From positions 139,063-203,062 of the forward strand of contig JAWKSQ010000001.1 of the NCBI GenBank assembly GCA_041389045.1: DNA of 64,000 bases. The letters are read 5' to 3'. The first letter of the stretch is position 1; each line of letters starts with the position of its first letter. Below, in pieces: positions 1,430 through 60,247 of the stretch. This DNA comes from Minisyncoccota bacterium. Lineage in GTDB: Bacteria > Patescibacteriota > Minisyncoccia > Phycocordibacterales > UBA918. Below the pieces are notes generated by a model. It was not told the origin of the DNA. It made no database searches and saw only the letters and a list, made by a program, of their open reading frames with translations. The position numbers and the translations under genes were made by a program.

Positions 1430-1571
1430 TAAAAATATCCATTAGAATCTCTGACTGTATCTTGCTTAAAATACAGGTTCGAATCATCTCGTCTTACACA
1501 CCAGCGAGCTAGCTCGAGAGACTCTAGTTCTTAGAGCGCCCAAGACAGGTTAATCTTAATTGTAAAACAAT

Positions 1572-1600
1572 AAGCATCTGAATTATCAGTGATGCTTTTT
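1572..1600 (+). terminator. putative rho-independent terminator after the recombinase
   Basis: Stem AAGCATC/GATGCTT followed by a T run. Confidence 0.45.
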
Positions 1601-1604
1601 ACTG

Positions 1605-2057: not shown

Positions 2058-2114
2058 GCTAACCTCTTTTCACGAAGATAGTTTTTACTATTCGTGATTA
2101 CGTTAGCTTTTTTG
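2057..2114 (+). terminator. nested-hairpin terminator
   Basis: AGCTAAC..TCACGAA..TTCGTGA..GTTAGCT followed by TTTTTT. Confidence 0.6.
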
Positions 2115-2143
2115 ATGCTTAATAACTTGAATTATATTAATTT

Positions 2144-2893: not shown

Positions 2894-2898
2894 AACTT

Positions 2899-3447: not shown

Positions 3448-3474
3448 TTATTATTTATCCTAAATTATTAAAAT

Positions 3475-4008: not shown

Positions 4009-4016
4009 GTCTGTAT

Positions 4017-4640: not shown

Positions 4641-4649
4641 ATAAATAAT

Positions 4650-5309: not shown

Positions 5310-5313
5310 TCGT

Positions 5314-6564: not shown

Positions 6565-6571
6565 CATTACT

Positions 6572-8518
6572 ATGACAGAGAGAAAACAAGAGTCAAAAAG
6601 TGCTTGTGACCATTGCCACAGCGACGCAAATCCTGAGACTGGAGTTCTGGCAATCCTGAGTGCAGGAGGTGCACTAAAATCACTTACACCTGTTTCAGGG
6701 ATGCTCTTAGCAGTGGGTTTTATTGGCTCGTTCTCACTACCTGAAGGCTGGAGTACACTTTTTTATCTACTATCTATCGTGGCAGGATCAATCTTTGTTC
6801 TACGGAGCGCCATCAATGGACTCATCAAACAAAGATTCTTAAATATTAGTTTCTTAGTAGTGATTGCTTCTATAGGAGCAATCTATATTGGTGAGTATGG
6901 CGAGGCGGCTGCAGTAGTTTTCCTCTTTTCATTAGCTGAATGGTTTGAGAGCTTTGGGGTTGAACGTTCACGTAAGGCAGTAGCAGCCCTCATTAAAAAA
7001 TCTCCAAAAGTCGCTCAGTTAAAAACTGGCGAGACTGTGCCTGTTGAAGAAGTTGAGATTGGAATGGTTGTAGTAGTAAAGCCTGGTGAGTTGATTCCAA
7101 TGGACGGTGTTGTTGTGGCTGGAGGTTCCTCAGTTGATGAGGCGGCGATTACTGGTGAGTCAACACCGTCTGATAAGGTCGTCAAAAGTAACGTGTTTGC
7201 TGGTACTCTCAATATACAAGGGTATCTTGAAATACAGGTAGAAAAAATGAGTAGAGATTCTACCTTTGCTAGAATCATTACGCTTATCGAAGAAGCTCAA
7301 GCCTCACGTGCCCCAACGCAAACATTTATTGATAATTTTGCTCGCTACTACACACCGCTAGTTGTTGTAGTGTCGCTACTAACGGTCGTCATTCCTGTGG
7401 TGCTACTTGGACAGCCATTTGATGAGTGGCTGTATCGAGCTATCACGCTCTTGGTGATAGCTTGCCCGTGTGCACTGGTAATTGCAACACCAGTTGCCAT
7501 CGCGTCAGCTATTGGCGGTGCGTCCCGTCACGGTATTTTGATTAAAGGTGGGGTGTATCTTGAAAAATTAGCCAAAGTGAAAGCGGTCGCTTTTGATAAA
7601 ACGCGGACTCTGACATACGGAAGACATACAGTTACAGAAGTCTTAGCGTTTGGTTCACACACCAAAGATGAAGTAATCGCTGACGCGGCTGGTTTGGAAG
7701 CTTTTTCCTCCCATCCGTTAGCAGAAGTAATTACTCAGTATGCAAAAGATCGAAGCATTACTCCACATAGCATGGAGTCGTTTGAAAACGTTGCTGGTAA
7801 AGGTGGAAAGGCACATTGTTTAGTTTGTAACGCAAAAAGTTATATTGGGAACACTAAGCTAATGAAAGAGCACGCGATAGAAGACAAATCGTTTTTAGCA
7901 GAAATTGAACGCTTGGAGAAGTTAGGCCAAACAGTAGTAATGGTGGCTGAAGAATCAGAGCTTATTGGGGCTATCGCAATAGCCGACACTGTACGTGAAG
8001 AATCCTCGTCTGTAGTTACGGAACTAAAGAAAGCTGGAGTAGAGAGTGCCATGCTTACCGGTGATAATACTCTCAATGCCACGTATGTGGCACAGTTAGT
8101 TGGCATAGATGATATTAGGTCTGAACTACTCCCTGAAGATAAAGTGAAAGCAGTGAAAGATTTACAAGCAAAGTATGGTTCAGTGGCGATGGTTGGCGAT
8201 GGGGTCAACGATGCACCCTCCCTAGTAACCTCAAATGTTGGCTTTGCCATCGGAGCAGGTGGTACCGATGCTGCGATTGAATCCTCAGACGTCACTCTTT
8301 TATCAGGTGATCTAACTACTATTCCACGTTCGATTCGATTAGCAAAAGCTACCATGAGAACGATTCGTTTCAATGTAGCTTTGGCTATAGGCGTAAAGAT
8401 TCTATTTTTGATTCTAGTACCGTTTGGCTTAACAAATCTTGTGTTTGCCATTGCAGCAGATTCAGGTATGGCGATTGTAGTTATTCTTAATAGCTTACGG
8501 CTATTTAATAAACAGTAA
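6572..8518 (+). CDS. P1B-type heavy-metal ATPase, CPC type (Zn/Cd/Pb-like)
   Basis: N-terminal CDHCHSD, TM6 ACPCALVIATP, GDGVNDAPSL, and TM8 AADSGMAIVV (DxG). The phosphorylation motif reads DKTRTLT instead of DKTGT. Confidence 0.85.
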   Translation: MTERKQESKSACDHCHSDANPETGVLAILSAGGALKSLTPVSGMLLAVGFIGSFSLPEGWSTLFYLLSIVAGSIFVLRSAINGLIKQRFLNISFLVVIASIGAIYIGEYGEAAAVVFLFSLAEWFESFGVERSRKAVAALIKKSPKVAQLKTGETVPVEEVEIGMVVVVKPGELIPMDGVVVAGGSSVDEAAITGESTPSDKVVKSNVFAGTLNIQGYLEIQVEKMSRDSTFARIITLIEEAQASRAPTQTFIDNFARYYTPLVVVVSLLTVVIPVVLLGQPFDEWLYRAITLLVIACPCALVIATPVAIASAIGGASRHGILIKGGVYLEKLAKVKAVAFDKTRTLTYGRHTVTEVLAFGSHTKDEVIADAAGLEAFSSHPLAEVITQYAKDRSITPHSMESFENVAGKGGKAHCLVCNAKSYIGNTKLMKEHAIEDKSFLAEIERLEKLGQTVVMVAEESELIGAIAIADTVREESSSVVTELKKAGVESAMLTGDNTLNATYVAQLVGIDDIRSELLPEDKVKAVKDLQAKYGSVAMVGDGVNDAPSLVTSNVGFAIGAGGTDAAIESSDVTLLSGDLTTIPRSIRLAKATMRTIRFNVALAIGVKILFLILVPFGLTNLVFAIAADSGMAIVVILNSLRLFNKQ

Positions 8519-8520
8519 TT

Positions 8521-8811
8521 ATGAAAAAGGAAACATTCAAGGAAATAATTGAAACAGACAATAGCATCCTCCTGCTCGATATTAGAGAGCCGGAAGAACT
8601 GCTAATTGAGGAAACAATTCCTGGTGCTAAGAACGTACCAATGGGGAAAGTTTTTACCGAAGCCATTAAAGGAAATTTACCAAAAGATGTACAGATAATT
8701 GTTTTCTGTCGTACAGGTGGTCGTGCTGGTGTAGTGGAAAGAGAGTTACGTGAAAGAGGGTATCTCATTGATGGATTGGAAGGCGGTCTAGAGGCTCTAA
8801 GGGAAACATAA
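8521..8811 (+). CDS. single-domain rhodanese-like sulfurtransferase
   Basis: Active-site loop FCRTGGRAG. About 96 aa. Confidence 0.8.
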   Translation: MKKETFKEIIETDNSILLLDIREPEELLIEETIPGAKNVPMGKVFTEAIKGNLPKDVQIIVFCRTGGRAGVVERELRERGYLIDGLEGGLEALRET

Positions 8812-8817
8812 TTATCT

Positions 8818-9291
8818 ATGCTAGAAATTGTCTCCATTTTTTTAGCTACCAAGTTGCACGTCGTTATTGTTTTGACTGCACTAGTTTTTGTTGCGCTCGC
8901 TTCAGATTATCAACGACTGCGAATTCTTGTATTAGCTACAATCTCATTACCTCTTACTTTTATCGTTAGCAGAAGTGCCTCTTTGTTAGTTGAGAACCCT
9001 CGACCATTTCTTGAGCACGATTTTATGCCATTGGTGGCTCACGCGGCTGACAATGGATTCCCTTCAGATCACGCTTTGTTGGTATTTGCTATCGCTAGTA
9101 TTGTGTTCACGTTTAACAAATCAGCTGGAATAGTTTTGTTTATTATGGCGGCTTTGGTTGGATTTGGAAGGGTGCTGGTTGGGGTACATCACGTTGTTGA
9201 TGTGCTAGGTAGTTTCGTGATTGCAGCATCCATTGTTAGTTTATGCTATCTAACTTTACGCAGTTCTCTTACTGAAATCTATAAAGATTAA
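8818..9291 (+). CDS. PAP2-family phosphatase (undecaprenyl-diphosphatase-like)
   Basis: PSDH and GRVLVGVHHVVD motifs in a polytopic membrane protein. Confidence 0.75.
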   Translation: MLEIVSIFLATKLHVVIVLTALVFVALASDYQRLRILVLATISLPLTFIVSRSASLLVENPRPFLEHDFMPLVAHAADNGFPSDHALLVFAIASIVFTFNKSAGIVLFIMAALVGFGRVLVGVHHVVDVLGSFVIAASIVSLCYLTLRSSLTEIYKD

Positions 9292-9310
9292 GTTTTTTGT
9301 GGGCGTTTTT

Positions 9311-10672
9311 CTATCCGAAGAATATTCCTCCTAATAACCAGAGATTTAGTCCAGCAATGATGATACAGATAATCCAAGCGATTATGCTAAGGATAGTTGA
9401 GTTTGCAAATTCACCCATAATCTTTTTACTGCCTGTAAACACAATGAGGGGAAAGATTGCAAAGGATAGTTGGAGACTAAGAACCACCTGACTTAATATC
9501 AAGAGATCTGTCGCTGCATTCGCACCGTAAAGACCAATAAAGACTACGGCAGGAATAATTGCTAGCAAACGAGTGATGATTCTTCGCATCCAAGGCTTGA
9601 TTCGTAGATTGATGAATCCTTCCATGATGATCTGACCAGCCAGTGTACCGGTAATAGTGGCGTTTTGTCCCGCTGCCAAAAGTGCAATGGCAAACAAAGT
9701 ACTAGCTGCACTAATACCAACTAGTGGCGAAAGGAGTTTGTAAGCATCCTCAATCGCTGCGACTTCATTGAGGCCGTTAGTAAAGAATACTGCAGCCGCT
9801 AGAATTAGAATTGAAGCATTAACAAACAAGGCGATAGTAAGGGCGATAGTTGAATCAAAAGTAGCAAACTTAACTGCTTCCTTTTTACCTTCTTTTGTTT
9901 CAGCATACATTCGAGTCTGAACGATAGATGAGTGCAAGTAGAGATTATGAGGCATTACTGTAGCTCCAATAATACCAATTGCTAAGTAAAGCATTTCAGG
10001 ATTGAATACTAATTGAGCAGTAGGAAGGAACCCAACTAGCAACGGAGCGATAGCGGGAGCTGAAGCAAAAATTTGAAAGGCAAATATACCAGCAATTGTC
10101 GCCATCAAAGTAACAATAAGGGCTTCTAAGTAACGGAAACCCTTATTCTGCAAGAGAAGAATAACTAAAACGTCAACTGCCGTAATGATCACACCGACTA
10201 TAATTGGAATATTAAACAGAAGGTAAAGTGCAATGGCTGAACCAATTACCTCGGCTAAGTCAGTGGCGATAATCATCACTTCAGCCATGAGCCAAAGTAT
10301 GATAGCGACCGGCTTAGGGAATTTATCTTTACACATTTGAGCTAGGTCTCTACCTGTCACAATACCCAGCTTTAGGGCTAGGTGCTGTAGAATCATGGCA
10401 AAAATACTAGACATTAGTACTACGGTAAGTAAGGCGTAGCCAAACTTTGAACCGCCAGCAATACTGGTGGCCCAGTTTCCTGGGTCCATATAACCGACAG
10501 CTACCAAAAAGCCTGGACCAGAATATAAGAGTAATTTTTTAGAAAAGGATAGGTTAGGTGGAACAGGAATTGAGCGGTGTACTTCAGGTAAACTCGGTGT
10601 CTTTTCATCTTCCCCCGCTTCTCTTGAGGCTCCTTTCCAGCCTAAAGCTTTAAATAAATTTGTGTGCGTCAT
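9311..10672 (-). CDS. mntH: Nramp-family divalent metal (Mn/Fe) transporter
   Basis: DPGNWATSIAGGSKFGY and MPHNLYLHS, 11-12 TM segments, 453 aa. Confidence 0.9.
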   Translation of the reverse strand: MTHTNLFKALGWKGASREAGEDEKTPSLPEVHRSIPVPPNLSFSKKLLLYSGPGFLVAVGYMDPGNWATSIAGGSKFGYALLTVVLMSSIFAMILQHLALKLGIVTGRDLAQMCKDKFPKPVAIILWLMAEVMIIATDLAEVIGSAIALYLLFNIPIIVGVIITAVDVLVILLLQNKGFRYLEALIVTLMATIAGIFAFQIFASAPAIAPLLVGFLPTAQLVFNPEMLYLAIGIIGATVMPHNLYLHSSIVQTRMYAETKEGKKEAVKFATFDSTIALTIALFVNASILILAAAVFFTNGLNEVAAIEDAYKLLSPLVGISAASTLFAIALLAAGQNATITGTLAGQIIMEGFINLRIKPWMRRIITRLLAIIPAVVFIGLYGANAATDLLILSQVVLSLQLSFAIFPLIVFTGSKKIMGEFANSTILSIIAWIICIIIAGLNLWLLGGIFFG

Positions 10673-10725
10673 AGGTATAATAAATCGCTTTTTGCGATAG
10701 GTTTTTAATAATGTTTTGTATAGTT

Positions 10726-11160
10726 TTAATCTTTAAACTTTGGAATAGGAGATCCATGAGGGTCATTCACTGGATTGTGTAAAAATTTTGCCAGTCTTTT
10801 TATTACGTCATCACTGAATGCATGTTCTAACTTCTCAGCTTCTTCATGGATTTTGTCTTTTGGAATTTTTAAAGTTTCGTGCAGGAAAACTTCTATAATC
10901 CTGTGTTTATAAGTTAGTTTCTGAGCCGCGCCCAAACCTTTTGCTGTCAAAGTAATTTGACCGTAGATTTCAGCAACTACAAAACCATCTCTAACTAATT
11001 CTTTCACTCGCTCTGAAACAGTTGATTTACTGAGCTTGAGACGTTCAGCAATATGTGTCACCCCAGCTTCACCCGTTGCTTTTTGGATAATATATATCGC
11101 TCTAATATAGTCTTCTTTGGTCGATGATATCGACGGAGGAGTACCCGAAGGTGTTCGCAT
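10726..11160 (-). CDS. mntR: DtxR/MntR-family metal-dependent repressor
   Basis: Winged-HTH N-terminus (EDYIRAIY..LKLSKSTVSERVKELV) and a dimerisation domain with HRIIEVFL..HEEAEKLEH. Lies directly upstream of mntH on the same strand. Confidence 0.8.
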   Translation of the reverse strand: MRTPSGTPPSISSTKEDYIRAIYIIQKATGEAGVTHIAERLKLSKSTVSERVKELVRDGFVVAEIYGQITLTAKGLGAAQKLTYKHRIIEVFLHETLKIPKDKIHEEAEKLEHAFSDDVIKRLAKFLHNPVNDPHGSPIPKFKD

Positions 11161-11246
11161 GTACGAACTATACTCTTATTCGCTTTAAAAGCAAGATAAA
11201 ATATCAACACAGGCAATAATTTATTATATGTAAATTTGAAACGCGA

Positions 11247-11275
11247 TTGACTAAGAGACCCCCTGGGGGTATCAT
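11247..11275 (+). promoter_or_regulatory. sigma70-like promoter with a G/C-tract palindromic operator in the spacer
   Basis: TTGACT (11247-11252), 17-nt spacer, TATCAT (11270-11275). The palindrome ACCCCCTGGGGGT (11258-11270) fills the spacer, 6 nt upstream of the csoR-family gene start. Confidence 0.6.
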
Positions 11276-11281
11276 TGAAAT

Positions 11282-11554
11282 ATGAAACAGGACATTAAGA
11301 AAAAAGTCATCAAAAGACTTAAAATCATTGAAGGTCAGGTTCGTGGGTTACAAAAAATGGTTGAGAAAGAGAAGTATTGTGTTGATGTTATTACCCAGTC
11401 CTCTGCTGTTCGTCATTCTCTAGGATCAGTTGAAGATTTAATGATGGAAAATCATCTTTCAACTCACGTGATTGAACAGATGAGGAAGGGGCAACATAAA
11501 AAAGCTACTCAAGAAATTTTATCGGTATATAAATTAGCTAAGTTTAATAAATAG
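11282..11554 (+). CDS. CsoR/RcnR-family metal-sensing repressor
   Basis: RLKIIEGQVRGLQKMV, then Cys (YCVDV) and NHLSTH. Ligand fingerprint is x-C-H-H. Confidence 0.8.
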   Translation: MKQDIKKKVIKRLKIIEGQVRGLQKMVEKEKYCVDVITQSSAVRHSLGSVEDLMMENHLSTHVIEQMRKGQHKKATQEILSVYKLAKFNK

Positions 11555-11556
11555 CT

Positions 11557-13554
11557 ATGAAACACTCACATGATTGTCATAGTCACGGAAGTCCTGGAAT
11601 GGGTCACGGCTCAGCTGGTACTTTTTTAAAGCGGTTTTGGATCGTTACCTTTCTGCTCATTCCGTTAGTCTTTGCTAACGAAATGATAATGGAGGCTATC
11701 GGTTTGGACTCATTCATTCTGAGCAAGTGGATCGGTTTTGGTATAGCTACAATTATTTTTGGTTTCTCGCTTATCTTTTTCCAGCATGCGTGGCATGAAA
11801 TAAAAGCCAGGGCGTATGGCATGATGACGTTGGTTTCAATCGCGGTTGCCTCAGGATATCTCTTTTCGGTAGCTGCTACATTTATTCCGAGTCTCGAAGC
11901 AGATTTCTACTTGGAAATTTCAACTTTGATTTGGGTGCTTCTCTTTGGGCATTACCTTGAAGCAAAGTCTGGAGCAGCAGCTGGTGATGCCCTTGCTGAA
12001 GTTGCTAAGCTTTTACCAAAACAGGCACACAAACTGGTTGACGGACAAGAAGTTGACGTAAACATTGCAGAGTTGGTTAAAGGCGATATTGTTTTAGTGA
12101 AACCAGGTGAGAAGATTCCAGCTGATGGTTTGATACAAGAAGGTTCTGCCAATATAGACGAAGCCCTGATTAGCGGTGAATCAAAGCCAGTTGAAAAAAC
12201 CGTCGGTGCGGAAGTAGTCGCTGGTGCTATCTGTCTTGATGGCTCACTCACCATTACACTTACCCGAGTTGGTGAACACTCTACCATTGGACAAATTCAA
12301 ACCTTAATCGCCCAGGCCCAACAGACCAAACCAAACTCGCAACGAATTGCCGACAAAGCAGCTGCCGTACTTACATTTGTGGCTGGTATTACTGCGCTGT
12401 TAACTATTTTGGTTTGGACATTCTTGCTAGGCGAGACGTTTGTGTTTGCGGTTACTCTCGCTATTACGGTATTGGTAATTGCTTGTCCGCACGCACTGGG
12501 TTTGGCTATTCCAACTGTGACCACCATCACGACATCACTAGCAGTGAAAAATGGTTTCTTCATCAAGAACCTAGCGAAGATTGAGGTCATTCGGAAAGCT
12601 GACTACGTGGTTTTTGATAAGACTGGCACGCTTACAACTGGTCAGTTTGGGGTGACTGATATTGTTGCGACCAGCAGTCTTTCTAAGGAAGACATTTTAC
12701 ACATTGCCGCTTCGCTTGAACAACATTCTTCACATATTATCGGTGAGTCTATTGTGAAGCATGCTAAAGATTCTAAAGTCGCACTCTCTAATATTTCAGC
12801 CTTTAAGAATGTAGCTGGGAAAGGTATCACTGCCGAACTTGATGGAAAAAGGTATGTGGTTGGTAATAAGGCCCTCATGTCTGAGATGAACATCAATCTT
12901 GATGGTGCTGAAGCCGAATATAAAACTCTGTCTAAGAAAGGCAAAACGACCATCTTGATAGCTGACGGAACTAAGGTGCTTGGTCTAGTCGCTCTGTCTG
13001 ATGCCATCAAACCAGAGTCATTTGAAGCAGTTAACCGGTTGCATGTAATGGGTGTGAAAGTAGCGATGTTAACGGGAGACAATATCCAAGTAGCTAAAAG
13101 TGTAGCCGAAGAACTTGGTATTGATACCTACTTTGCCGAAGTGTTGCCAGAAGATAAATACGAACACATTAAGGAATTGCAAAATGATGGCTCAATTGTA
13201 TTGATGGTTGGCGACGGTGTAAATGATGCACCTGCACTGACCCAAGCAAATGCGGGAATTGCCATTGGTGCAGGAACTGATGTGGCAGTTGAAGCGGGTG
13301 ATGTGGTACTGACTCGCAACAATCCCGAAGACATTGTTCGACTGATTACATTAGCCAAGAAAGTGTATAGCAAAATGATCCAAAATCTTGTGTGGGCGCT
13401 GGGGTATAACGTTGTCGCTATTCCAGCTGCTGCTGGCGTGTTTGCGTACTGGGGCTTCTTCTTACGGCCTGAAATCGGGGCGTTTGTGATGAGTTTATCA
13501 ACGGTGATTGTAGTAGCCAATGCCATGCTCCTCAAACGAATAGATTTAGGTTAA
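11557..13554 (+). CDS. copB: P1B-3 type copper ATPase (CopB-like, CPH motif)
   Basis: His-rich N-terminus (HSHDCHSHGSPGMGHG), TM6 ACPHALGLAIP, DKTGTLT, GDGVNDAPAL, YN in TM7 and MSLST in TM8. Confidence 0.85.
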   Translation: MKHSHDCHSHGSPGMGHGSAGTFLKRFWIVTFLLIPLVFANEMIMEAIGLDSFILSKWIGFGIATIIFGFSLIFFQHAWHEIKARAYGMMTLVSIAVASGYLFSVAATFIPSLEADFYLEISTLIWVLLFGHYLEAKSGAAAGDALAEVAKLLPKQAHKLVDGQEVDVNIAELVKGDIVLVKPGEKIPADGLIQEGSANIDEALISGESKPVEKTVGAEVVAGAICLDGSLTITLTRVGEHSTIGQIQTLIAQAQQTKPNSQRIADKAAAVLTFVAGITALLTILVWTFLLGETFVFAVTLAITVLVIACPHALGLAIPTVTTITTSLAVKNGFFIKNLAKIEVIRKADYVVFDKTGTLTTGQFGVTDIVATSSLSKEDILHIAASLEQHSSHIIGESIVKHAKDSKVALSNISAFKNVAGKGITAELDGKRYVVGNKALMSEMNINLDGAEAEYKTLSKKGKTTILIADGTKVLGLVALSDAIKPESFEAVNRLHVMGVKVAMLTGDNIQVAKSVAEELGIDTYFAEVLPEDKYEHIKELQNDGSIVLMVGDGVNDAPALTQANAGIAIGAGTDVAVEAGDVVLTRNNPEDIVRLITLAKKVYSKMIQNLVWALGYNVVAIPAAAGVFAYWGFFLRPEIGAFVMSLSTVIVVANAMLLKRIDLG

Positions 13555-13571
13555 AATAACAGACATAACGT

Positions 13572-13988
13572 ATGTTTACATTTGTACAACAAACAGCTAA
13601 GAAAATAGTCTGTATTAGCGTACTCACAGTTTTTATCGGCGCCATGTTCGTTAGCTTGTTCCATATGTCTGTAGGCATGGATATGGCTGGTGGCATGTCA
13701 GATTGTCTGTTTATGGAACGAGGTGAAGTGATTTGCCCGATGAATATCGCTGACCATATTGGGGCGTGGAAAGATGCTTTTGTTTCAGTCGTTCCAACCA
13801 TCGTCACGCTTGTATTAGCTGCGGGTGCGATTGCTTTGGTTGTTTCAACAGCACCTTTTTTATTGGGTGCAAAAAGAAAACTGATACCCATCCAACTCAA
13901 TGTGTTTCGTACTCGGACGTACTCCTTTTCATATCGTCCACTACAGGAACTATTTTCTAATGGTATTCTTCACCCAAAACTTTTTTAG
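13572..13988 (+). CDS. hypothetical membrane protein with a Cys/Met motif, paralog of 1605..2057
   Basis: Same conserved blocks as ORF 1605-2057 (SLFHMS, C..ME.G..IC.M, H..AW, QELFSNGILHPKLF). Immediately downstream of copB. Confidence 0.6.
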   Translation: MFTFVQQTAKKIVCISVLTVFIGAMFVSLFHMSVGMDMAGGMSDCLFMERGEVICPMNIADHIGAWKDAFVSVVPTIVTLVLAAGAIALVVSTAPFLLGAKRKLIPIQLNVFRTRTYSFSYRPLQELFSNGILHPKLF

Positions 13989-14044
13989 CTACCGAATATT
14001 GCGATTTAAATCGCTCATTTAGTAGCTTAGAAAAGTAAATAAAC

Positions 14045-14707
14045 ATGCAAAAAACATACTTTCTTGGTGCAATTCTTTTTGCACCATCGATTATTCTCGC
14101 TCACGAGGAAGAACTACATATCACCACGGCGTGGTACCAAGAACCGATGACTGTTGTCGCCATACTTTTAGCTGCTCTGGCTATAAGTGTGCTCAGCTAT
14201 GGAGTCATCACCAAGAGAAAAAACTTCATCACGATACCAGTAATAGCGTTGGTAGCGGTTGCTGTCACAGGTTTAGTTTCCTTTGGTCAAAACAACCTCA
14301 CCTACGAGCCAGACTTAGCGGTCGCAAACTTTGGTGAAGGTCAGTCAGTCACCTTATACAAGAGTCCGAATTGCGGCTGTTGTAGTGGTCACACAGCGGC
14401 ACTCGAAGCAGCTGGCTTTGATGTCACGATTGAAGAAACAAATGAGCTTAACACTATTAAACAATCAAACAATATTCCTCTGGGTGGAGAGAGCTGTCAC
14501 ACGTCTATCATTGGTGATTACGTAGTAGAAGGTCATGTGCCACTAGAAGCCATTGAGAAACTACTGACTGAACAACCTGACATTGCTGGCATTGGATTAC
14601 CGGGAATGCCAATTGGTACCCCAGGTATGCCAGGCAAAAAAACAGCTCCGTATGAAGTTTATCAATTATCAGCTGATGGAGAGATGTCACCTTATCTAAC
14701 TATCTAA
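14045..14707 (+). CDS. DUF411 (CopG-like) metal-binding protein with an N-terminal membrane region
   Basis: YKSPNCGCCSGH, CHTSIIGDYVVEGHVP and GLPGMPIGTPGMPG are the DUF411 signature blocks. Confidence 0.8.
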   Translation: MQKTYFLGAILFAPSIILAHEEELHITTAWYQEPMTVVAILLAALAISVLSYGVITKRKNFITIPVIALVAVAVTGLVSFGQNNLTYEPDLAVANFGEGQSVTLYKSPNCGCCSGHTAALEAAGFDVTIEETNELNTIKQSNNIPLGGESCHTSIIGDYVVEGHVPLEAIEKLLTEQPDIAGIGLPGMPIGTPGMPGKKTAPYEVYQLSADGEMSPYLTI

Positions 14708-14709
14708 AT

Positions 14710-16383
14710 ATGAAATACATATTAAGCATAGGTGCGTTCTTGCTCCTTATTGGTGGGGTGTTTTGGTATACCAGTACTCCAAACATGATGAGGATGAACA
14801 TGGACGGCATGATGATGGGACAAAATATTCCTGAAGAAGACAATTTAGCAATCTTGCACGATGCGAATGTACCAGAAGTACAGCCAACTCAAGTGGTTGA
14901 ACTCAATGATGGCGATACATTTAATCTTACTGCTTCAATTGTGAAGCAAGAAGTCGGTAATCGAACTGTAAAGCGGTTGGCGTATAACGGTCAGATTCCT
15001 GGCCCAGTACTGAAGGTGCAAAAGGGTGCAAAAGTGACCGTCAACTTTATCAACAACATAGACATGCAGACATCACTGCACTCACACGGCTTACGCGGAG
15101 ATTGGCAGATGGACGGTGCAGTACCGATTACTCCAGCCATTGCAGTCGGAGAAAGTTTCTCGTATGAACTTGAGTTCCCTGATACGGGCGTATTTTGGTA
15201 CCACCCACACGTACGTGAAGACTACCAGCAAGAAGTGGGTCTCTACGGAAACATGATTGTAGAAGAAGATGGGTACTGGAATGAGGCTGATCAAGAAGAA
15301 TATCTAATAGTTGATGACATTCTTGAAGACGGAGACTTTACCGAAGGAGTAGTGACTAACACTCTCATGGGCCGCTTTGGTGACACATTGCTCATTAATG
15401 ACAAAGAAGACTATAACTTTACCGTTAAACAAGGAGAAATAACACGGGCGTATATCACTAACGTTGCAAACACTCGAACCTTCCAGTTAGAGTTTGAAGG
15501 TGCACTCATGAAGCTTGTCGGTGGAGATGTGGGGCGAATTGAAAAAGAAGAGATAATCGAGCATCAGACTATAGGAACAGCTGAACGATATGTAATTGAG
15601 CTGTATTACGATACGCCAGGAACGTACGCAATTGATCATCGTGGAGAAACTATTGGTACAGTCACCGTAGAAGCTTCTGGTACAAATAAGAAAGCAGAAT
15701 TCATGACCTTGCGTTCTAACGTTGCTGACTATACTGATATTCGATCTGATGTTGCATCGTTATTATCTAAAACACCTGACAAAAATCTTCGTCTCGATAT
15801 AGAAATGAAAGGCATGATGAGCGGAATGATGAATGATATGAACGGTGGTGGATCAGGTATGGGTATGATGGGCGGAAATGCTGATGACGATATGATGCGT
15901 GAGCACTGCAAGATGATGCCGGAAATGGCTGGCTGTGAACCGTATCTAGAAGGATCTGAAGAAGAGGAAGAAGAACACGGCGAGGATGGTATTGAATGGG
16001 AAGACGATATGGCCATGATGAACAATATGAGTTCTGACGAAAATATCGAATGGGTTATTGAAGACACTGACACAGGAGCAAAGAACGACGAGATTGATTG
16101 GTCATTCAAGACTGGAGACTTAGTGAAGGTGCGTGTCTACAATGACGAAAAAGGTATGCATCCTATGCAGCATCCTCTTCACTTCCACGGTCAACGGTTT
16201 GTTGTCTTGGCAGAAGACGGTGAACTCAATGAAAACATGCAGTGGAAAGACACGGTGTTGATTCCAAAGGGTCAGACTGTAGATATTCTTGTTGATATGA
16301 GTAACCCAGGCAACTGGATGGCTCACTGTCACATCGCTGAACACCTGCACTCAGGCATGATGTTCAACTTTGAGGTGAAGTAA
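14710..16383 (+). CDS. multicopper oxidase with a Met-rich and acidic insertion
   Basis: Copper-site motifs HSHGL, WYHPH, HPLHFHG and HCHIAEHLHSGMM. The insert is MKGMMSGMMNDM..MGMMGG..EEEEEEHGEDG. Confidence 0.85.
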   Translation: MKYILSIGAFLLLIGGVFWYTSTPNMMRMNMDGMMMGQNIPEEDNLAILHDANVPEVQPTQVVELNDGDTFNLTASIVKQEVGNRTVKRLAYNGQIPGPVLKVQKGAKVTVNFINNIDMQTSLHSHGLRGDWQMDGAVPITPAIAVGESFSYELEFPDTGVFWYHPHVREDYQQEVGLYGNMIVEEDGYWNEADQEEYLIVDDILEDGDFTEGVVTNTLMGRFGDTLLINDKEDYNFTVKQGEITRAYITNVANTRTFQLEFEGALMKLVGGDVGRIEKEEIIEHQTIGTAERYVIELYYDTPGTYAIDHRGETIGTVTVEASGTNKKAEFMTLRSNVADYTDIRSDVASLLSKTPDKNLRLDIEMKGMMSGMMNDMNGGGSGMGMMGGNADDDMMREHCKMMPEMAGCEPYLEGSEEEEEEHGEDGIEWEDDMAMMNNMSSDENIEWVIEDTDTGAKNDEIDWSFKTGDLVKVRVYNDEKGMHPMQHPLHFHGQRFVVLAEDGELNENMQWKDTVLIPKGQTVDILVDMSNPGNWMAHCHIAEHLHSGMMFNFEVK

Positions 16384-16400
16384 TAGCGGTATGCACGCAA

Positions 16401-16436
16401 ACTAACAAGACCACTCAATTGAGTGGTCTTGTTAGT
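16401..16436 (+). terminator. 16-bp perfect hairpin terminator
   Basis: ACTAACAAGACCACTC-AATT-GAGTGGTCTTGTTAGT followed by TT. Confidence 0.7.
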
Positions 16437-16493
16437 TTGCTAGACTTGCTGAGATTGATGGGGTATTAACCCCTCTCGATAGGTCTCGCTACG

Positions 16494-16569
16494 TGGTGCG
16501 CCCACTAGGGATCGAACCTAGGACCTTCTCCTTAAAAGGGAGCTGCTCTACCGGCTGAGCTATAGGCGC
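16494..16569 (-). tRNA. tRNA-Lys (anticodon TTT), CCA encoded
   Basis: Manual cloverleaf: acceptor GCGCCTA/TGGGCGC, D arm GCTCAGCCGGTAGAGC, anticodon loop CTTTTAA, T arm CTAGG-TTCGATC-CCTAG, then ACCA. Confidence 0.85.
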
Positions 16570-26654: not shown

Positions 26655-26726
26655 GCTCTCGTAGTTTAATGGATAAAATGCTGGTTTGCGGTACCAGCGC
26701 TCCAGGTTCGATTCCTGGCGAGAGCA
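26655..26726 (+). tRNA. tRNA-Arg (anticodon GCG)
   Basis: Acceptor GCTCTCG/CGAGAGC, anticodon stem CTGGT/ACCAG with loop TTGCGGT, T arm CCAGG-TTCGATT-CCTGG, discriminator A. No encoded CCA. Confidence 0.75.
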
Positions 26727-26876
26727 CAAATAAACACTCCCAATAATATGGGGTGTTTATTTTTGTAGCTCGAAGAGCCGGAGTCTTCGTCCAGGAATCG
26801 AAAACTGTATATCGCACGGAGCAGAAGCAGTGACGGCTGCCGTCCCATGAGGAAGATTACCCTGGCGAGAGCACCA
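26727..26876. repeat. tRNA-linked repeat unit ending in a duplicated tRNA-Arg(GCG) 3' fragment
   Basis: Contains hairpin 26729-26765, short hairpin CGAAGA..TCTTCG 26771-26789, and CCAGGAATCGAA 26791-26802, which is the reverse complement of the tRNA T arm 26707-26718. CCTGGCGAGAGCA at 26861-26873 duplicates 26714-26726 and is followed by CCA. Confidence 0.7.
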
Positions 26877-33763: not shown

Positions 33764-34291
33764 ATGAGTACCGAAAAATACCAAGGAAGAAAATATTTGG
33801 TCCAAAGCTATGATCCTAACTGGGTTGCACAATACGAAGTTGAGGAATCCGCTTTGAGACGGACTCTTGGAGGTAACATACTATCAATAGAGCATGTAGG
33901 TAGCACTTCTGTACCAGGACTGGCTGGAAAGCCACTCATAGATATCCTGGTTGTTGTCAAGAATATTGAAGAAGCTGACAGATTCGAGCCAACCTTGAGT
34001 TCACTTGGTTATGATTTTCTTGGTCAGTACGTGATGGAGGGTTCACGTTTATATGTTAAGGAGAAAGACAATACTCGTCTGGTAAACTTACATTTTTTCA
34101 AACAAGGACATAAACATATCTGTGAGATGATTGGATTGCGAGATTATTTTCGTTCGCACCCAGAAGTGGTCAAAGGATACAGTCAACTCAAGTTTGATTT
34201 ATTTGAAAAATATCCTGATGATTACGGTTCATACAGAAAATATAAAGATGATTGGGTGAATGAACTGAAAGCTAAACTCGGATTAGTATGA
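33764..34291 (+). CDS. GrpB family protein
   Basis: IEHVGSTSVPGLAGKPLIDILVVV and the following blocks are typical of GrpB/UPF0157. Confidence 0.8.
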   Translation: MSTEKYQGRKYLVQSYDPNWVAQYEVEESALRRTLGGNILSIEHVGSTSVPGLAGKPLIDILVVVKNIEEADRFEPTLSSLGYDFLGQYVMEGSRLYVKEKDNTRLVNLHFFKQGHKHICEMIGLRDYFRSHPEVVKGYSQLKFDLFEKYPDDYGSYRKYKDDWVNELKAKLGLV

Positions 34292-34701
34292 AAGAAATCT
34301 ATCACGGGACAACTCAAAAAGACTTACAGGTAATCAAGCCTTTTAAAAGATATACGCCTGGTGGCAAAGACATCGCTGATTCTATTCCTCCACGTATTTA
34401 TGCTACCTACAATCCAGCTTACGCTGTTGCGCACAGCTTCCCTTGGTCTTCTGATGATGGAGTAGATATTTCAATTAGAGACGGCATAGTAACTATCATT
34501 GTCCCAAGTGATAAAGAGTCTGTACTTAAACAAGAGGTCTGTATCTACACGCTTCCTGATGACACTTTTGTTTTTACTGATGAGGAAGAAACTGGTCTAA
34601 CTTATCACACTACCGAAGAAATTAAACCTATTACGTGTCAAAGCTTTAAAAGTGTTGCAGAAGCAATGGATAAAATGGGAGGAAAAATTATCTTTATATA
34701 A
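34288..34701 (+). CDS. hypothetical protein
   Basis: 137-aa ORF overlapping the grpB stop by 4 nt. No family recognised. Confidence 0.45.
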   Translation: MKEIYHGTTQKDLQVIKPFKRYTPGGKDIADSIPPRIYATYNPAYAVAHSFPWSSDDGVDISIRDGIVTIIVPSDKESVLKQEVCIYTLPDDTFVFTDEEETGLTYHTTEEIKPITCQSFKSVAEAMDKMGGKIIFI

Positions 34702-34743
34702 AAGTAAACAAATACGAAACTGAAGCGATTCATAACCTTCCTT

Positions 34744-34811
34744 TGACGCAGGTTACTAAGTGTTCTCACCAATTTCATTGGTTGCGAGCACTAAGTACCT
34801 GCTGTCCCAGC
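34744..34811 (+). repeat. 68-bp element, itself hairpin-forming; left copy of a perfect inverted repeat (partner 38955..39022)
   Basis: The reverse complement of 38955-39022 is identical over all 68 nt (checked base by base). Internal arms GCAGGTTACTAAGTG / CACTAAGTACCTGC and ACCAAT / ATTGGT. Confidence 0.9.
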
Positions 34812-34999
34812 GCATTTGTTTTCTTTCTGAGGAGAAAGAAAACAGCCTTTACGCTTCACAAAACTACAAAACCAGCCGCAGGGCTGGTTTTGTTTAATGT
34901 TTTGTGGGGTCAAGTTTCTAATTCACTACGTTCATAAGAACTTCCTCCCCGACCTCGTCTATTTTGGCATTAAGTAATAGCCAAAATATGACTCCGGTT

Positions 35000-35101
35000 G
35001 GCACACAGGCACGAAACTGAAGCAATTCAGTTTCTAAATCAAAAGCACGATTCTCTCAAAGAATCGTGCTTTTGATTTACCTGTGTGCCCCCGCGAGGAA
35101 T
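35000..35101. repeat. tRNA-linked three-helix module ending in a displaced tRNA-Arg(TCT) 3' fragment
   Basis: Closing helix GGCACACAGG 35000-35009 / CCTGTGTGCC 35080-35089. Hairpin GAAACTGAA-GCAA-TTCAGTTTC 35013-35034. Long hairpin 35036-35078. GTGCCCCCGCGAGGAAT at 35085-35101 duplicates 35306-35322. Confidence 0.7.
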
Positions 35102-35306
35102 GATCCCGCAGTTTCTAATTCTCTATGCCCGCCTGACGGCAGGCTAGCTCATAAGAACTGCTGGACGCAGCTCCCTCGTTTTCTTTCTAGGAAGGAAAGA
35201 AAACATCACTCCGCTGGTTCGATTCCTACGAAAAGTGCCTATGCACTTTTCTCTTGGGGTACGAACAAAAACGGCACACATAATAGTGTGCTCGTTTTTG
35301 TACTCG
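35102..35306. repeat. tRNA-linked repeat unit adjacent to the intact tRNA-Arg(TCT)
   Basis: GGTTCGATTCCT 35216-35227 is the reverse complement of the tRNA T arm region 35317-35328. Hairpin GAAAAGTGC-CTAT-GCACTTTTC lies in 35228-35252 and a long terminator-like hairpin at 35259-35303. Hairpin GTTTTCTTTCT..GAAAGAAAAC lies near 35178-35206. Confidence 0.65.
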
Positions 35307-35378
35307 TGCCCCCGCGAGGAATCGAACCTCGAATAACGGCTTAGAAGTCCGCAGTTATATCCATTTAACTACAAGGGC
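35307..35378 (-). tRNA. tRNA-Arg (anticodon TCT)
   Basis: Acceptor GCCCTTG/CGGGGGC (two G-U pairs), anticodon loop CTTCTAA, T arm CGAGG-TTCGATT-CCTCG, discriminator A. Confidence 0.8.
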
Positions 35379-35455
35379 AATCAACTTGCGAAGCATAGCA
35401 GAAAAAGATGGTGCTGTGAATATTAGATGAAAAGCAAATGGCATCGCGCTTGCAG

Positions 35456-35726
35456 GGTGAAAGGCTCGATCACCTCGCTGAGTATTTTTGTTCAAGATAA
35501 AGTTTTTTCGTGGTCACGAATCACTAAGTATATTTCTGCACTTCGTGCGAAATCCACTAAGTGTTCTCGACCCAGGCTCAACCCTTTTCTTCCCTGTGAA
35601 GGGGAAGAAAAGATGTCTCCGCCTCGCACTAAGGCACGAAAGCAAAGCAGTTTGCTTTCTAAAAGAAAAGCCCAGTCAATTTGTGACTGGGCTTTTCTTT
35701 TACCTTAGTGCGCGATGAGAGGCTCG
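35456..35726. repeat. tRNA-linked repeat unit ending in a displaced tRNA-Val 3' fragment
   Basis: 35456-35492 is homologous to 35715-35751. ACTAAGT-armed hairpins. Hairpin CCTTTTCTTCCC..GGGGAAGAAAAG. Closing helix CGCACTAAGG 35625-35634 / CCTTAGTGCG 35703-35712 encloses hairpins 35636-35660 and 35661-35701. TAGTGCGCGATGAGAGGCTCG at 35706-35726 duplicates 35894-35914. Confidence 0.7.
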
Positions 35727-35896
35727 GTCACCTCGCTAAGTATTTTTGTTCGCTATGCTCCAAAAAGTACTAAGCTCCTCGACCCCGGCTATTTTAATTC
35801 TCCAAGTCTTCGAATTAAAATCACGCCCTTCGAGCCTCACACATCTATGCCTGAGACACAAAATGTCCCAGCAAAAGCTGGGACATTTTGGTCTAG
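35727..35896. repeat. tRNA-linked repeat unit adjacent to the intact tRNA-Val
   Basis: CTAAGT-armed hairpin 35737-35781. Hairpin ATTTTAATTC..GAATTAAAAT. TTCGAGCCTC 35829-35838 is the reverse complement of the tRNA T arm 35907-35916. Terminator-like hairpin 35860-35889. Confidence 0.65.
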
Positions 35897-35969
35897 TGCG
35901 CGATGAGAGGCTCGAACTCCCGACCTTCGCAGTGTAAATGCGCTGCTCTACCAACTGAGCTAATCGCGC
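35897..35969 (-). tRNA. tRNA-Val (anticodon TAC)
   Basis: Acceptor GCGCGAT/ATCGCGC, D arm GCTCAGTTGGTAGAGC, anticodon loop TTTACAC, T arm GGGAG-TTCGAGC-CTCTC, discriminator A. Confidence 0.85.
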
Positions 35970-36055
35970 AGACTTTCATATCTGCGTCGCCATATACTAC
36001 CGGTTTTTCAAATATTATCAATATCTCTCCTGGCAGGTATACTGTGTCATATATT

Positions 36056-38607: not shown

Positions 38608-38692
38608 GCCCAGGTGGTGAAATTGGTATACACGTATCCTTGAGGTGGATATGCCGAAAGGTGTGGAGGTTCAAGTCCTCTCCTGGGCACCA
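38608..38692 (+). tRNA. tRNA-Leu (anticodon GAG), CCA encoded
   Basis: Acceptor GCCCAGG/CCTGGGC, anticodon stem TATCC/GGATA with loop TTGAGGT, long variable arm, T arm GGAGG-TTCAAGT-CCTCT, then ACCA. Confidence 0.85.
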
Positions 38693-38826
38693 GATTAAAG
38701 CCGGCGACTAGCCGGTTTTAATGTGGGCGAGAGGACTTGAAAAGCTTTTGAGGCAGAATTGACTGAAAGGAAATTGTGTCCAAAAGGTCTACTGAACATG
38801 TAATGTTCAAGTCCTCTCCTGGGCAC
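38693..38826. repeat. tRNA-linked repeat unit ending in a duplicated tRNA-Leu 3' fragment
   Basis: Terminator hairpin 38697-38719. GAGAGGACTTGAA 38729-38741 is the reverse complement of the tRNA T arm 38670-38682. GTTCAAGTCCTCTCCTGGGCAC at 38805-38826 duplicates 38669-38690 (22 nt). Confidence 0.7.
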
Positions 38827-39022
38827 AGAGTCGCAAAAACAAGAACACCACCTTTAGGTGGTGTTCTTGTTTTTAGGAAGCAAACTGCTTTGCTTCCGGC
38901 GACTCTGTGAAGCGGAGACATGTTCTTGCTCGTTTCTAGAGCAAGAACAGTTGAGCTGGGACAGCAGGTACTTAGTGCTCGCAACCAATGAAATTGGTGA
39001 GAACACTTAGTAACCTGCGTCA
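38824..39022 (-). repeat. tRNA-linked repeat unit in inverted orientation, containing the right copy of the 68-bp inverted repeat
   Basis: Closing helix CACAGAGTCGC 38824-38834 / GCGACTCTGTG 38899-38909 encloses hairpins 38835-38874 and 38876-38897. Hairpin GTTCTTGCTC..GAGCAAGAAC lies near 38921-38949. The 68-bp element is at 38955-39022. Confidence 0.7.
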
Positions 39023-39038
39023 AAAAATCTTACGTTTT

Positions 39039-39140
39039 GCCGGTTTTAATGTGGGCGAGAGGACTTGAAAAGGTTGCCAGCTATTTTGAAAAAATAGCGA
39101 CAACCTGTACTGAACTCCTAGAGTTCAAGCCCTCTTCCAA
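39039..39140. repeat. second, degenerate copy of the tRNA-Leu-linked unit
   Basis: 34 nt are identical to 38711-38744 (GCCGGTTTTAATGTGGGCGAGAGGACTTGAAAAG at 39039-39072). It ends in GTTCAAGCCCTCTTCC, a degenerate tRNA-Leu 3' fragment. Confidence 0.6.
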
Positions 39141-39190
39141 CTTATGAATATATTGACAAAATACTATAAAAATGTTATTATATAAAAATA

Positions 39191-49209: not shown

Positions 49210-49470
49210 CGTAAAAATATTATAACAAGTTTTAATTTCTCTATAGAGTAGCTATAAAAAACTAATGTAGCACTGCTTCAAAATGATCGGTACCAGGGTA
49301 ATCTTTCGCTACACGAACGGTACAGTTTTCACACCTTACTTCGCCAAAGGCTCGTTTCGGCATGTTCAAACTCTTCGATTCTCGACGCTAGTGACGTAGG
49401 TCACTAGCTGTAGCCTAGTCATAAAAAAGAAACCTCTCCCGAAAAGGGGAGAAGCTTCGTTTTCCTGATG

Positions 49471-49543
49471 GGCGATCACAGGGAATCGAACCCTGATTAC
49501 CGGTACCACAAACCGGAGTATTAGCCGTTATACGATGATCGCC
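49471..49543 (-). tRNA. tRNA-His (anticodon GTG) with encoded G-1
   Basis: GGCGATCA../..TGATCGCC acceptor including the G-1:C73 pair, anticodon stem CCGGT/ACCGG with loop TTGTGGT, T arm CAGGG-TTCGATT-CCCTG. Confidence 0.8.
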
Positions 49544-59643: not shown

Positions 59644-60066
59644 ATGGCAAAGAAATTAGTCAAAAAAATCAAAGTTCAAGCTGTCGGTGGTAAAGCTACC
59701 CCAGCTCCACCACTTGGTCCGGTACTAGGTCAGGCTGGTATTAATATTGGTGAATTCGTGAACCAATTTAACGAACAGACTCGTGACCGCATGGGACAAG
59801 TAGTACCAGTAGAACTTTCAGTCTTCGACGACCGAACTTTTACTTTCATTACTAAAGTTTCACCGATGTCTCGTTTGATTCTAAAGAAAATGGATAAGGC
59901 TAAAGGTTCAAGTAAGAATGCTATTACCAAAATAGGAACTCTAACCAAAGCCCAAGTAAAAGAAATCGCTGAAGAGAAAATGCCTGACCTCAATGCTGCT
60001 TCACTCGAAGCGGCGATGAAGACGGTAGAAGGAACAGCTCGCTCAATGGGCGTAAACGTAGAATAA
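59644..60066 (+). CDS. rplK: 50S ribosomal protein L11
   Basis: KVQAVGGKATPAPPLGPVLGQAGINIGEFVNQFN. Confidence 0.9.
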   Translation: MAKKLVKKIKVQAVGGKATPAPPLGPVLGQAGINIGEFVNQFNEQTRDRMGQVVPVELSVFDDRTFTFITKVSPMSRLILKKMDKAKGSSKNAITKIGTLTKAQVKEIAEEKMPDLNAASLEAAMKTVEGTARSMGVNVE

Positions 60067-60173
60067 TTTACGTTTACAAAGGTTGTTGACAGTTTGTGAC
60101 TGAAAGGAAGTAAAGTGTCATACAACCTGAACCGCTTCTGTTAAGAAGTAAACGTAGAACAATCTACCTAAAG

Positions 60174-60214
60174 CAACAAAAAAGCCGGTCCCTTTGGGAC
60201 CGGCTTTTTTGTTG
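60174..60214 (+). terminator. rho-independent terminator after rplK
   Basis: CAACAAAAAAGCCGGTCCC-TTT-GGGACCGGCTTTTTTGTTG. Confidence 0.8.
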
Positions 60215-60247
60215 CACAGACGCTTACTCCTGATAAGATTACCTTCA

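Follow-up and report, generated by a model that had tools for sequence, protein, structure and literature searches.

The stretch analysed here, hereafter the window, comprises 64,000 nt from the genome of a Minisyncoccota bacterium (contig JAWKSQ010000001.1). Between the stop codon of an open reading frame (ORF, 34288-34701) and the start of an acylphosphatase gene at 36056 lies an interval (34702-36055) that is free of genes apart from tRNA-Arg(tct) and tRNA-Val(tac). Both tRNAs are followed by short units that alternate with copies of the respective tRNA 3' end (Table 1). A preliminary description of this DNA had reported that 17 nt of the tRNA-Arg end and 21 nt of the tRNA-Val end recur downstream, and a repeat search returned both as exact direct repeats. 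By our own estimate (250 x 4^-17), the chance of an exact 17-mer recurring inside about 250 nt is about 1e-8. One 43-nt repeat (35451-35493 and 35709-35751, 86% identity) covers both the 37-nt tandem-unit repeat of the same description and its degenerate third tRNA-Val end, now placed at 35445-35468. Self-comparison of the interval revealed related units throughout, three behind tRNA-Arg, two behind tRNA-Val, and one right-end fragment. The third Arg-linked unit (about 34716-34906) falls outside the coordinates given earlier, so that the feature is larger than first described. The repeats are spaced about 170-260 nt apart in this stretch and 96-300 nt overall. As had been noticed, the units are devoid of genuine ORFs, carrying just short spurious ones over hairpins and tRNAs, none with a Pfam match.

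The units follow a common anatomy. Read along the tRNA strand, each copy of the tRNA end (X) is followed by a terminator-like hairpin and then by an inverted copy of X. After the inverted copy come a conserved GGAG(A/T)C motif, at least one hairpin, and a long hairpin with ACTTAGT arms. The inverted copy is internal to the unit, 30-80 nt from its left end; examples of X and its inverted copy are 35317-35328 with 35216-35227 and 35904-35916 with 35829-35841, and further pairs are GGCACACAGG/CCTGTGTGCC and CGCACTAAGG/CCTTAGTGCG. In minimum-free-energy folds, X pairs with its own inverted copy across the terminator, resulting in a predicted composite hairpin of about 35-45 bp. Judged by eye rather than by a dedicated comparison, the right end of a unit (AGGTGAC, for instance) is no inverted version of its left end, the tRNA-end copy. 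Proximal X copies are usually perfect, distal ones are degenerate, and the newest-looking copy adjoins the tRNA. A near-invariant 22-nt hairpin, (G/A)(G/A)AAGCAAACTGCTTTGCTT(C/T)(C/T), recurs at 35638-35659 and 38876-38897 as well as in two loci of the survey described below (L009 and L020). It is confined to units, lies on the tRNA strand in all cases, and could be a candidate protein-binding site.

Table 1 Features of the tRNA-Arg/tRNA-Val stretch and of the other occupied sites in the window. X1, tRNA-borne copy of the repeat; X2, displaced copy; R1 and R2, covariance models built from unit alignments.
Feature	Position	Strand	Details
tRNA-Val(tac), intact	35896-35969	minus	ARAGORN and Rfam
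Repeat copy X1 of tRNA-Val	35894-35914	minus	21 nt; begins at T-loop C56 and ends two bases beyond the discriminator
Val unit 1 (type 3)	35727-35893	minus	R2, 94.8 bits; terminator-like hairpin 35860-35889; inverted tRNA-end copy 35829-35851; hairpin 35791-35822; conserved CCGGGGTCGAGG 35777-35788; long hairpin 35734-35776; right end AGGTGAC 35727-35733
Displaced tRNA-Val 3' end X2	35706-35726	minus	21/21 match to 35894-35914
Val unit 2, outer limit approximate	35494-35705	minus	R2, 83.7 bits; terminator-like hairpin 35660-35702; conserved small hairpin GAAAGCAAACTGCTTTGCTTTC 35638-35659; inverted copy CCTTAGTGCG 35625-35634; AGGCGGAGACATC 35612-35624; hairpin 35584-35611; long hairpin 35519-35565
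Third Val-linked unit, remnant	35445-35493	minus	right-end fragment 35469-35493; degenerate tRNA-Val end 35445-35468
Promoter-like site 5' of tRNA-Arg	35392-35420	minus	TTCACA-17-TATGCT
tRNA-Arg(tct), intact	35306-35378	minus	ARAGORN and Rfam
Repeat copy X1 of tRNA-Arg	35306-35322	minus	final 17 nt of the tRNA
Arg unit 1 (type 2)	35102-35305	minus	R2, 25 bits; terminator 35265-35301; inverted acceptor part 35251-35262; hairpin 35231-35250; inverted T-arm part 35216-35230; AGCGGAGTGAT 35205-35215; hairpin 35178-35204; body 35102-35177
Displaced tRNA-Arg 3' end X2	35085-35101	minus	17/17 match to 35306-35322
Arg unit 2 (type 2)	34907-35084	minus	R2, 30.4 bits; terminator-like hairpin 35035-35079; small hairpin 35013-35034; inverted copy CCTGTGTGCC 35000-35009; AACCGGAGTCATA 34987-34999; hairpin 34962-34986; body 34907-34961
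Arg unit 3 (oldest)	about 34716-34906	minus	R2, 67.9 bits; remnant end CACAAAAC 34899-34906; terminator 34866-34893; inverted copy 34852-34865; hairpin 34817-34844; long hairpin 34748-34802
Right end of a unit (example)			...GCGAGGTGAC
tRNA-Arg(gcg) and one unit	26655-26874	plus	tRNA 26655-26727; terminator 26728-26762; inverted T-arm copy 26791-26802; displaced end CCTGGCGAGAGCAC 26861-26874
tRNA-Leu(gag) and three units	38608-39141	plus	tRNA 38608-38692; X copies 38669-38690 and 38805-38826; degenerate X copy 39123-39141; inverted copies 38723-38741 and 39051-39069; terminators 38697-38719 and 38835-38874
tRNA-His and one type-1 unit	49284-49542	minus	R1, 28 bits; tRNA 49470-49542; degenerate displaced end 49284-49303
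Minimal 96-nt type-1 unit at the 3' end of rplK (non-tRNA site)	60052-60163	plus	

Alignments of units from different tRNAs and genomes indicate that the spacers are covarying multi-hairpin bodies of one family. In alignment A1 (type 1, 13 units), 94% of the cells form a standard pair and 22 of 28 pairs are changed on both sides; none of 500 shuffles reached the observed value, and slid alignments were 30-48% paired. Alignment A3 (types 2 and 3, 14 units), to which the Arg, Val and Leu arrays of the window contribute four units, likewise has 94% standard-pair cells, with 18 of 26 pairs changed on both sides (0/500 shuffles reaching this value; slid alignments 27-39% paired). The consensus is a predicted multi-helix junction, closed by the inverted copy pairing with the first bases of X, and its conserved junction nucleotides are GAAR, GUACUGA, a GUA loop and GGGGUCGAGG. 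Two covariance models were built from the unit alignments, with R1 representing the type-1 units. Together they gave 65 matches (E <1e-3), all of them in loci of the candidate phyla radiation (CPR) and all on the tRNA strand; 57 lie at most 900 nt downstream of a same-strand tRNA, 41 of these within 120 nt. All six units of the Arg-Val stretch are recovered.

Beyond the window, we surveyed 160 loci around homologues of undecaprenyl-diphosphate synthase (UppS; locus labels such as L083). A downstream copy of the tRNA's last 16 nt (at least 14/16 matching, at most 600 nt away) was present at 37 of the 148 tRNAs with enough flank, and an upstream copy at 0/148. All 37 sit in CPR-type loci, and the link of the units to tRNA 3' ends in Paceibacterota is tight. 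The repeats have sharp boundaries: they begin at T-loop position 56 in types 2 and 3 and at 53/54 in type 1, and on the right they reach one base beyond the discriminator. Most repeats measure 17-24 nt, their length being nearly fixed by type at 19 nt or 21-22 nt, and the spacing is 133-299 nt in the tRNA-linked units measured. An exact inverted copy (at least 9 nt, at most 130 nt downstream of the tRNA) accompanies 29 of 34 CPR tRNAs with a repeat, 20 of 90 CPR tRNAs without one, and none of 28 non-CPR tRNAs; those inspected among the CPR tRNAs with an inverted copy and no repeat carry units whose displaced copy has decayed. Overall, a repeat or an inverted copy was found at 54 of the 124 CPR tRNAs sampled.

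This distribution bears on a local, non-mobile origin, in which the surroundings of the tRNA terminator would have undergone tandem duplication, slippage or hairpin template-switching. A terminator stem can be lengthened into the tRNA end when templates are switched at quasi-palindromes, leaving arms that are complementary without selection, and tRNA-Val of locus L005 shows just a 10-nt extension of this kind. Against such an origin, successive terminators and bodies within one array differ in sequence, the upstream controls are zero, and bodies are common to different tRNAs and genomes. Arrays built of near-identical local copies, which this explanation would require, were not observed. The cross-genome family largely refutes it, and we regard it as very improbable.

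The remaining occupied sites of the window extend the range of targets (Table 1). An Arg-linked segment (34742-34860) and a Leu-linked segment (38906-39024) are 84% identical even though they belong to two different tRNAs. At rplK, which encodes ribosomal protein L11, a unit that is recovered as an R1 match at 60064-60169 (33 bits) carries the repeat GTAAACGTAGAA(T/C)AAT. The first copy (60052-60067, GTAAACGTAGAATAAT) forms the final codons and stop of the gene, and the second (60148-60163) reads GTAAACGTAGAACAAT. An inverted copy, TACGTTTAC, follows at 60069-60077, and the unit has its own three-way junction. The old rplK terminator (60170-60215) lies 3' of the displaced copy. Since the displaced copy encodes ...VNVEQST*, the insertion has cut L11 by three residues, its original end having been ...VNVEQST*. 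No unit was found behind the tRNA-Lys and tRNA-Ser genes of the window.

Unit content turns over between genomes. Depending on the genome, orthologous tRNA-Val(tac) genes are followed by type 3, type 2, type 4 or composite units, or by none; other orthologous tRNAs are likewise empty in some cases. Type 1 was found at Arg, His, Ser, Leu(gag), Leu(cag) and rplK. The loci L083 and L084, which represent two strains, differ in unit content despite flanking genes that are about 96% identical: tRNA-Leu(cag) of L083 is a different allele and carries a unit, tRNA-Leu(cag) of L084 carries none, and the distal arrays behind tRNA-Val differ as well (L083 2800-4600 vs L084 3560-4625). Where the X copies of an array differ (L011 Val; L083/L084 Val), the inverted copy matches the tRNA-borne copy together with a unit-borne flank, and because it tracks the tRNA-borne copy, X copy, terminator and inverted copy would constitute one left module of the unit. 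The T-arm of the L084 tRNA-Val does not match that of its displaced copy, a difference suggesting that recombination has replaced the allele.

Two further arrangements were observed in the surveyed loci. In a mirror-image case on the minus strand (L003 4727-4935, L083 2960-3168, L084 3728-3936), the duplication concerns the 5' portion of the tRNA instead of its 3' portion; a truncated 5' copy of tRNA-Arg(tct) (positions 1-47), together with its promoter, precedes in this order a hairpin, a type-1 body, a TATAAT-like spacer, and the complete tRNA-Arg. Tandem modules related to type-1 bodies also occur away from any tRNA (L003 10970-11280, minus strand; L011 11801-11871), in the order GUGAGAA, hairpin, CGCAAG, P2, GRACAG, P3.

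The preliminary description had explained the restored tRNAs and displaced 3' fragments by repeated insertion at the same site. The sharp repeat boundaries, the newest-looking proximal copy and the degraded distal copies bear this out, and the inserts are, as it stated, tiny and without an integrase (96-300 nt, no ORF with a Pfam match). Of the two origins it had offered, miniature non-autonomous elements accord with the narrow size range (spacing 133-299 nt) and with covarying bodies conserved across genomes and tRNAs. On the same grounds, we reject decayed scars for the proximal units. The anatomy of the units, the existence of the family, its tight link to tRNA 3' ends and its turnover between genomes are what the sequences show: a unit begins inside the T-loop of the tRNA with its own copy of the last 17-22 nt, this copy keeps the tRNA intact, and the former 3' end lies downstream of the unit, together with the former terminator. 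Our preferred reading, to which we give a probability of roughly one half, takes the units as miniature insertion elements, site-specific and non-autonomous, which give the tRNA its 3' end back, stack serially, are moved in trans and probably work in the form of folded single strands. As every insertion would hit the same point of a functional tRNA, units would stack, with the newest adjoining the tRNA and the distal ones decaying. A helper enzyme encoded elsewhere would presumably move the units in trans, and the active form may be a folded single strand in which the pair of tRNA-end copy and inverted copy mimics the target. The folded-single-strand reading is favoured by resemblances to integron attC and CTX-phage attP, namely the inverted copy, the covarying fold, a unit without an enzyme of its own, and stacking in one direction. 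Such a route would work like the hairpins of these two systems, and integration by it would be hard to reverse.

Which strand folds, and as which nucleic acid, was addressed from several sides. No promoter-like site occurs inside the units; on the tRNA strand, such sites were confined to positions upstream of the two tRNAs. At tRNAs, the unit body sits between two palindromic terminator-like hairpins. Weak evidence of this predicted kind suggests that the units may be without a dedicated transcript. In 30 of 36 units, the sense strand gives the more stable fold; folding energy is nevertheless not strong evidence on the strand, composition-matched shuffles carrying most of the bias (-3.8 vs -6.9 kcal/mol). 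Counts of G.U pairs in minimum-free-energy folds gave no significant strand difference. Within the covarying helices, G.T outnumbers A.C by 30:7, or by 20:7 after subtraction of one conserved pair, a ratio biased by the use of the sense strand for the structure prediction. There is moderate evidence that the sense strand would be the folded form. Since targets on both strands of the window are occupied, insertion is unlikely to depend on the lagging-strand template alone; single-stranded target might instead be supplied by the sense strand that is displaced in highly transcribed genes.

The same fold could belong to structured RNAs, host-beneficial or selfish, that arise as read-through or 3'-trailer RNAs and are inherited mainly vertically. 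The inverted copy would then pair with the displaced tRNA end, so that an acceptor/T-stem-like helix closes the three-way junction, and the tRNA-like product would be processed by tRNA enzymes or act on tRNA metabolism. Strong covariation, the conserved junction nucleotides (GAAR, GUACUGA, GUA loop) and the excess of G.T over A.C on the sense strand are consistent with this explanation, as is the position of the rplK unit within a transcribed 3' UTR (untranslated region). Bodies are moreover kept between genomes at about 57% UppS identity, and the inverted copy outlasts the displaced copy. At tRNAs, on the other hand, the body lies 3' of a strong bidirectional terminator-like hairpin and has no promoter-like site, and the strand asymmetry in energy is largely compositional. 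The inverted copy also tracks the tRNA-borne copy and flank, not the displaced copy that the closing helix requires. A fixed RNA would not be expected to show decaying distal copies, turnover of types, differences between strains, or orthologous sites without a unit. On balance, we consider structured RNAs an unlikely explanation of the units.

The enzyme that would move miniature elements in trans was sought in the window by a Pfam scan of 36 of the approximately 75 ORFs called. The sole recombinase among these 36 is a large serine recombinase (99-1145, with Resolvase and Recombinase domains); the others belong to ordinary non-mobility families or gave no match, and neither a tyrosine recombinase nor IntI was among them. 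The serine recombinase, possibly truncated, stands at the far end of a block (99-16569) with apparent metal-resistance genes, among them P-type ATPase-like and multicopper-oxidase-like ORFs as judged from their translations alone. tRNA-Lys (16494-16569) adjoins this block, which has the look of an island integrated separately; a repeat of tRNA-Lys was not found within the window.

Another conceivable origin of the units is as deletion scars of kilobase-sized, integrase-bearing islands or prophages in tRNA genes. A tRNA 3' fragment beside an intact tRNA, as present here, is the classic signature of island or prophage integration (PMC9897764). Two surveyed loci hold kilobase-sized stretches between X copies, namely L015 at tRNA-His (+2723; 9226-12040) and L083 at tRNA-Arg (+2782; 62-2937). 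One of them carries a hydrolase, a histidine phosphatase and a methyltransferase, the other an insertion of an IS3-family transposase, and both end in a normal type-1 unit. They were considered as autonomous versions of the units and rejected, as neither contains an integrase. Both large cases consist of housekeeping-type cargo or an IS3 insertion with ordinary type-1 ends, which speaks against scars, as do the narrow size range and the homologous covarying bodies across many genomes and tRNAs. Viral contigs gave 0 matches to three unit motifs, and in phage and plasmid records the similarity was confined to tRNA-Arg itself. An origin as island scars is accordingly hard to sustain, and we assign it very little weight.

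At both gathering and permissive thresholds, Rfam 15 matched the tRNAs alone in the window and in L003, other scores falling far below threshold. The literature searched contains no description of the units, and the family, common in Paceibacterota, is apparently undescribed. Several known systems were considered and rejected: hammerhead and other known self-cleaving ribozymes (junction motifs misfit by eye, none in Rfam), IS91 (its target is GTTC, absent from the rplK target), retrons (no reverse transcriptase nearby), T-boxes (wrong architecture), and spare 3' halves for the repair of cleaved tRNAs (the junction position varies between unit types).

Several observations weigh against miniature insertion elements moved in trans. 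A cognate recombinase was not identified; the serine recombinase of the window lies 34 kb from the units, and a crude, insensitive motif screen of 448 ORFs of CPR loci contained no tyrosine recombinase. No filled and empty pair for the same tRNA allele was found in the collections searched. In genome and metagenome collections, the best UppS relatives of the window genome, which is of the Paceibacterota/Parcubacteria type within the CPR, were 58-62% identical, with none above 62%, and an exact-protein lookup was empty. One scaffold would moreover have to come to carry matching X and inverted X for at least six tRNAs and rplK. The G.T excess (30:7) fits a fold of the sense strand, yet RNA and single-stranded DNA are indistinguishable by it. 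Finally, the inverted copy persists at the 20 tRNAs with a decayed displaced copy, and bodies are conserved across genomes whose UppS proteins are about 57% identical; both could reflect selection for a host or RNA function rather than mobility. The identity of the helper, the matching of scaffold and target, and the conservation of inverted copy and body are the points on which structured RNAs and guide-programmed insertion stay alive as rivals.

Under guide-programmed insertion, a nucleic-acid guide made up of the inverted copy and the 5' strand of hairpin P3 would base-pair with the target, where an enzyme encoded in trans would insert the unit; the kinds envisaged are IS110 (bridge RNA), IS200/IS605 (TnpA/TnpB) and related enzymes. 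A long target-site duplication would then account for the displaced copy, or else this copy would be the guide-like 3' flank of a scaffold RNA. The type-1 scaffold occurs at unrelated targets, several T-loops and the final codons of rplK, and its inverted copy and P3 stem fit each of them. The repeat length, nearly fixed per type at 19 nt or 21-22 nt, agrees with a guide, and a body with a 17-22-nt flank would be sized like a scaffold plus guide. The tRNA-Leu(cag) allele of L083 differs along with its unit, as homing co-conversion would produce. However, such an enzyme was not seen among the window ORFs scanned, and Rfam gave no match to IS605-associated or HEARO RNAs. The putative guide is paired to the adjacent tRNA-end copy, a terminator stands between it and the tRNA promoter, and it has no promoter of its own. 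IS110 and IS200/IS605 elements, moreover, are not known to produce 17-22-nt duplications, which counts against this rival. Guide-programmed insertion is therefore a doubtful proposition. Equally tentative is its most specific form, in which the units would be protein-less programmable elements whose inverted copy and P3 strand make up a guide of about 20 nt. This guide would pair with the single-stranded sense strand at the 3' ends of highly transcribed genes (tRNAs, rplK) and direct a trans enzyme. If so, retargeting would take a change of guide alone, as in bridge RNAs and TnpB guides, in a different architecture and with a long duplication.

If mobile, as the reading as miniature insertion elements holds, the units (96-300 nt) would be among the smallest site-specific integrative elements known, and they would occupy a large share of the tRNA genes in a major CPR lineage. 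They would point to a trans-acting recombination system in organisms with very small genomes, and the use of one scaffold for many targets hints at a simple, exploitable retargeting rule. Their arrays would form an ordered record of past insertions. For annotation, the units inflate apparent "intergenic" space, leave confusing tRNA fragments, and place long hairpins at every occupied tRNA.

The closest counterparts by target are tRNA-targeting integrative elements. Insertion into tRNA genes has the T-loop as one of its sublocations, and cis-mobilisable integrase-less derivatives and tycheposon remnant arrays are among the element types. The units resemble tyrosine-integrase islands, prophages and tycheposon arrays in their insertion in a tRNA loop, restored 3' end, displaced repeat and tandem arrays. 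Such elements bring along a new 3' end for the tRNA and displace the old one, which persists as a direct repeat (PMC9897764). In contrast to tRNA-targeting islands, the units measure 96-300 nt, bear neither an integrase nor any other gene, and bring no kilobase cargo. They also contain an inverted tRNA-end copy and a covarying fold, with one scaffold serving many tRNAs and a protein gene.

By structural analogy, the units are also comparable to integron attC sites and CTX-phage attP. All have an imperfect hairpin of variable sequence and conserved shape, in which two inverted attachment copies pair within one strand. As in integron cassettes, again a structural analogy, no recombinase lies in the unit, entry at one fixed site pushes older units away, and arrays persist. 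The target differs, being a tRNA T-loop/3' end or the 3' end of rplK instead of attI or of dif, the site at which host XerCD acts on CTX-type elements (IMEX), and the repeat measures 17-22 nt, not about 7. Of the two attC cores, R'' RYYYAAC and R' GTTRRRY, the latter has a purine as its fourth base; by eye, without a pattern scan, the unit junction GTTC(G/A), with C at this position, misfits it.

With IS200/IS605-derived palindrome-associated elements (PATEs) and TnpB/IscB guide RNAs, the units share a size of 100-300 nt, hairpins near both ends, a strand-specific fold, and a scaffold next to about 20 nt of flanking target. Unlike these, which make no long repeats and carry no target copy, the units have a 17-22-nt repeat, which the element could bring with it instead of generating it during insertion. 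Neither TnpA nor TnpB appeared among the window ORFs scanned, and none of the IS605-associated RNAs of Rfam was matched. Miniature inverted-repeat transposable elements (MITEs) are likewise small, non-coding, present in many copies, and presumably moved in trans. The units differ from MITEs in their repeat of 17-22 nt as against 2-10, in their site-specificity for gene 3' ends, and in an inverted repeat that is internal and copies the target.

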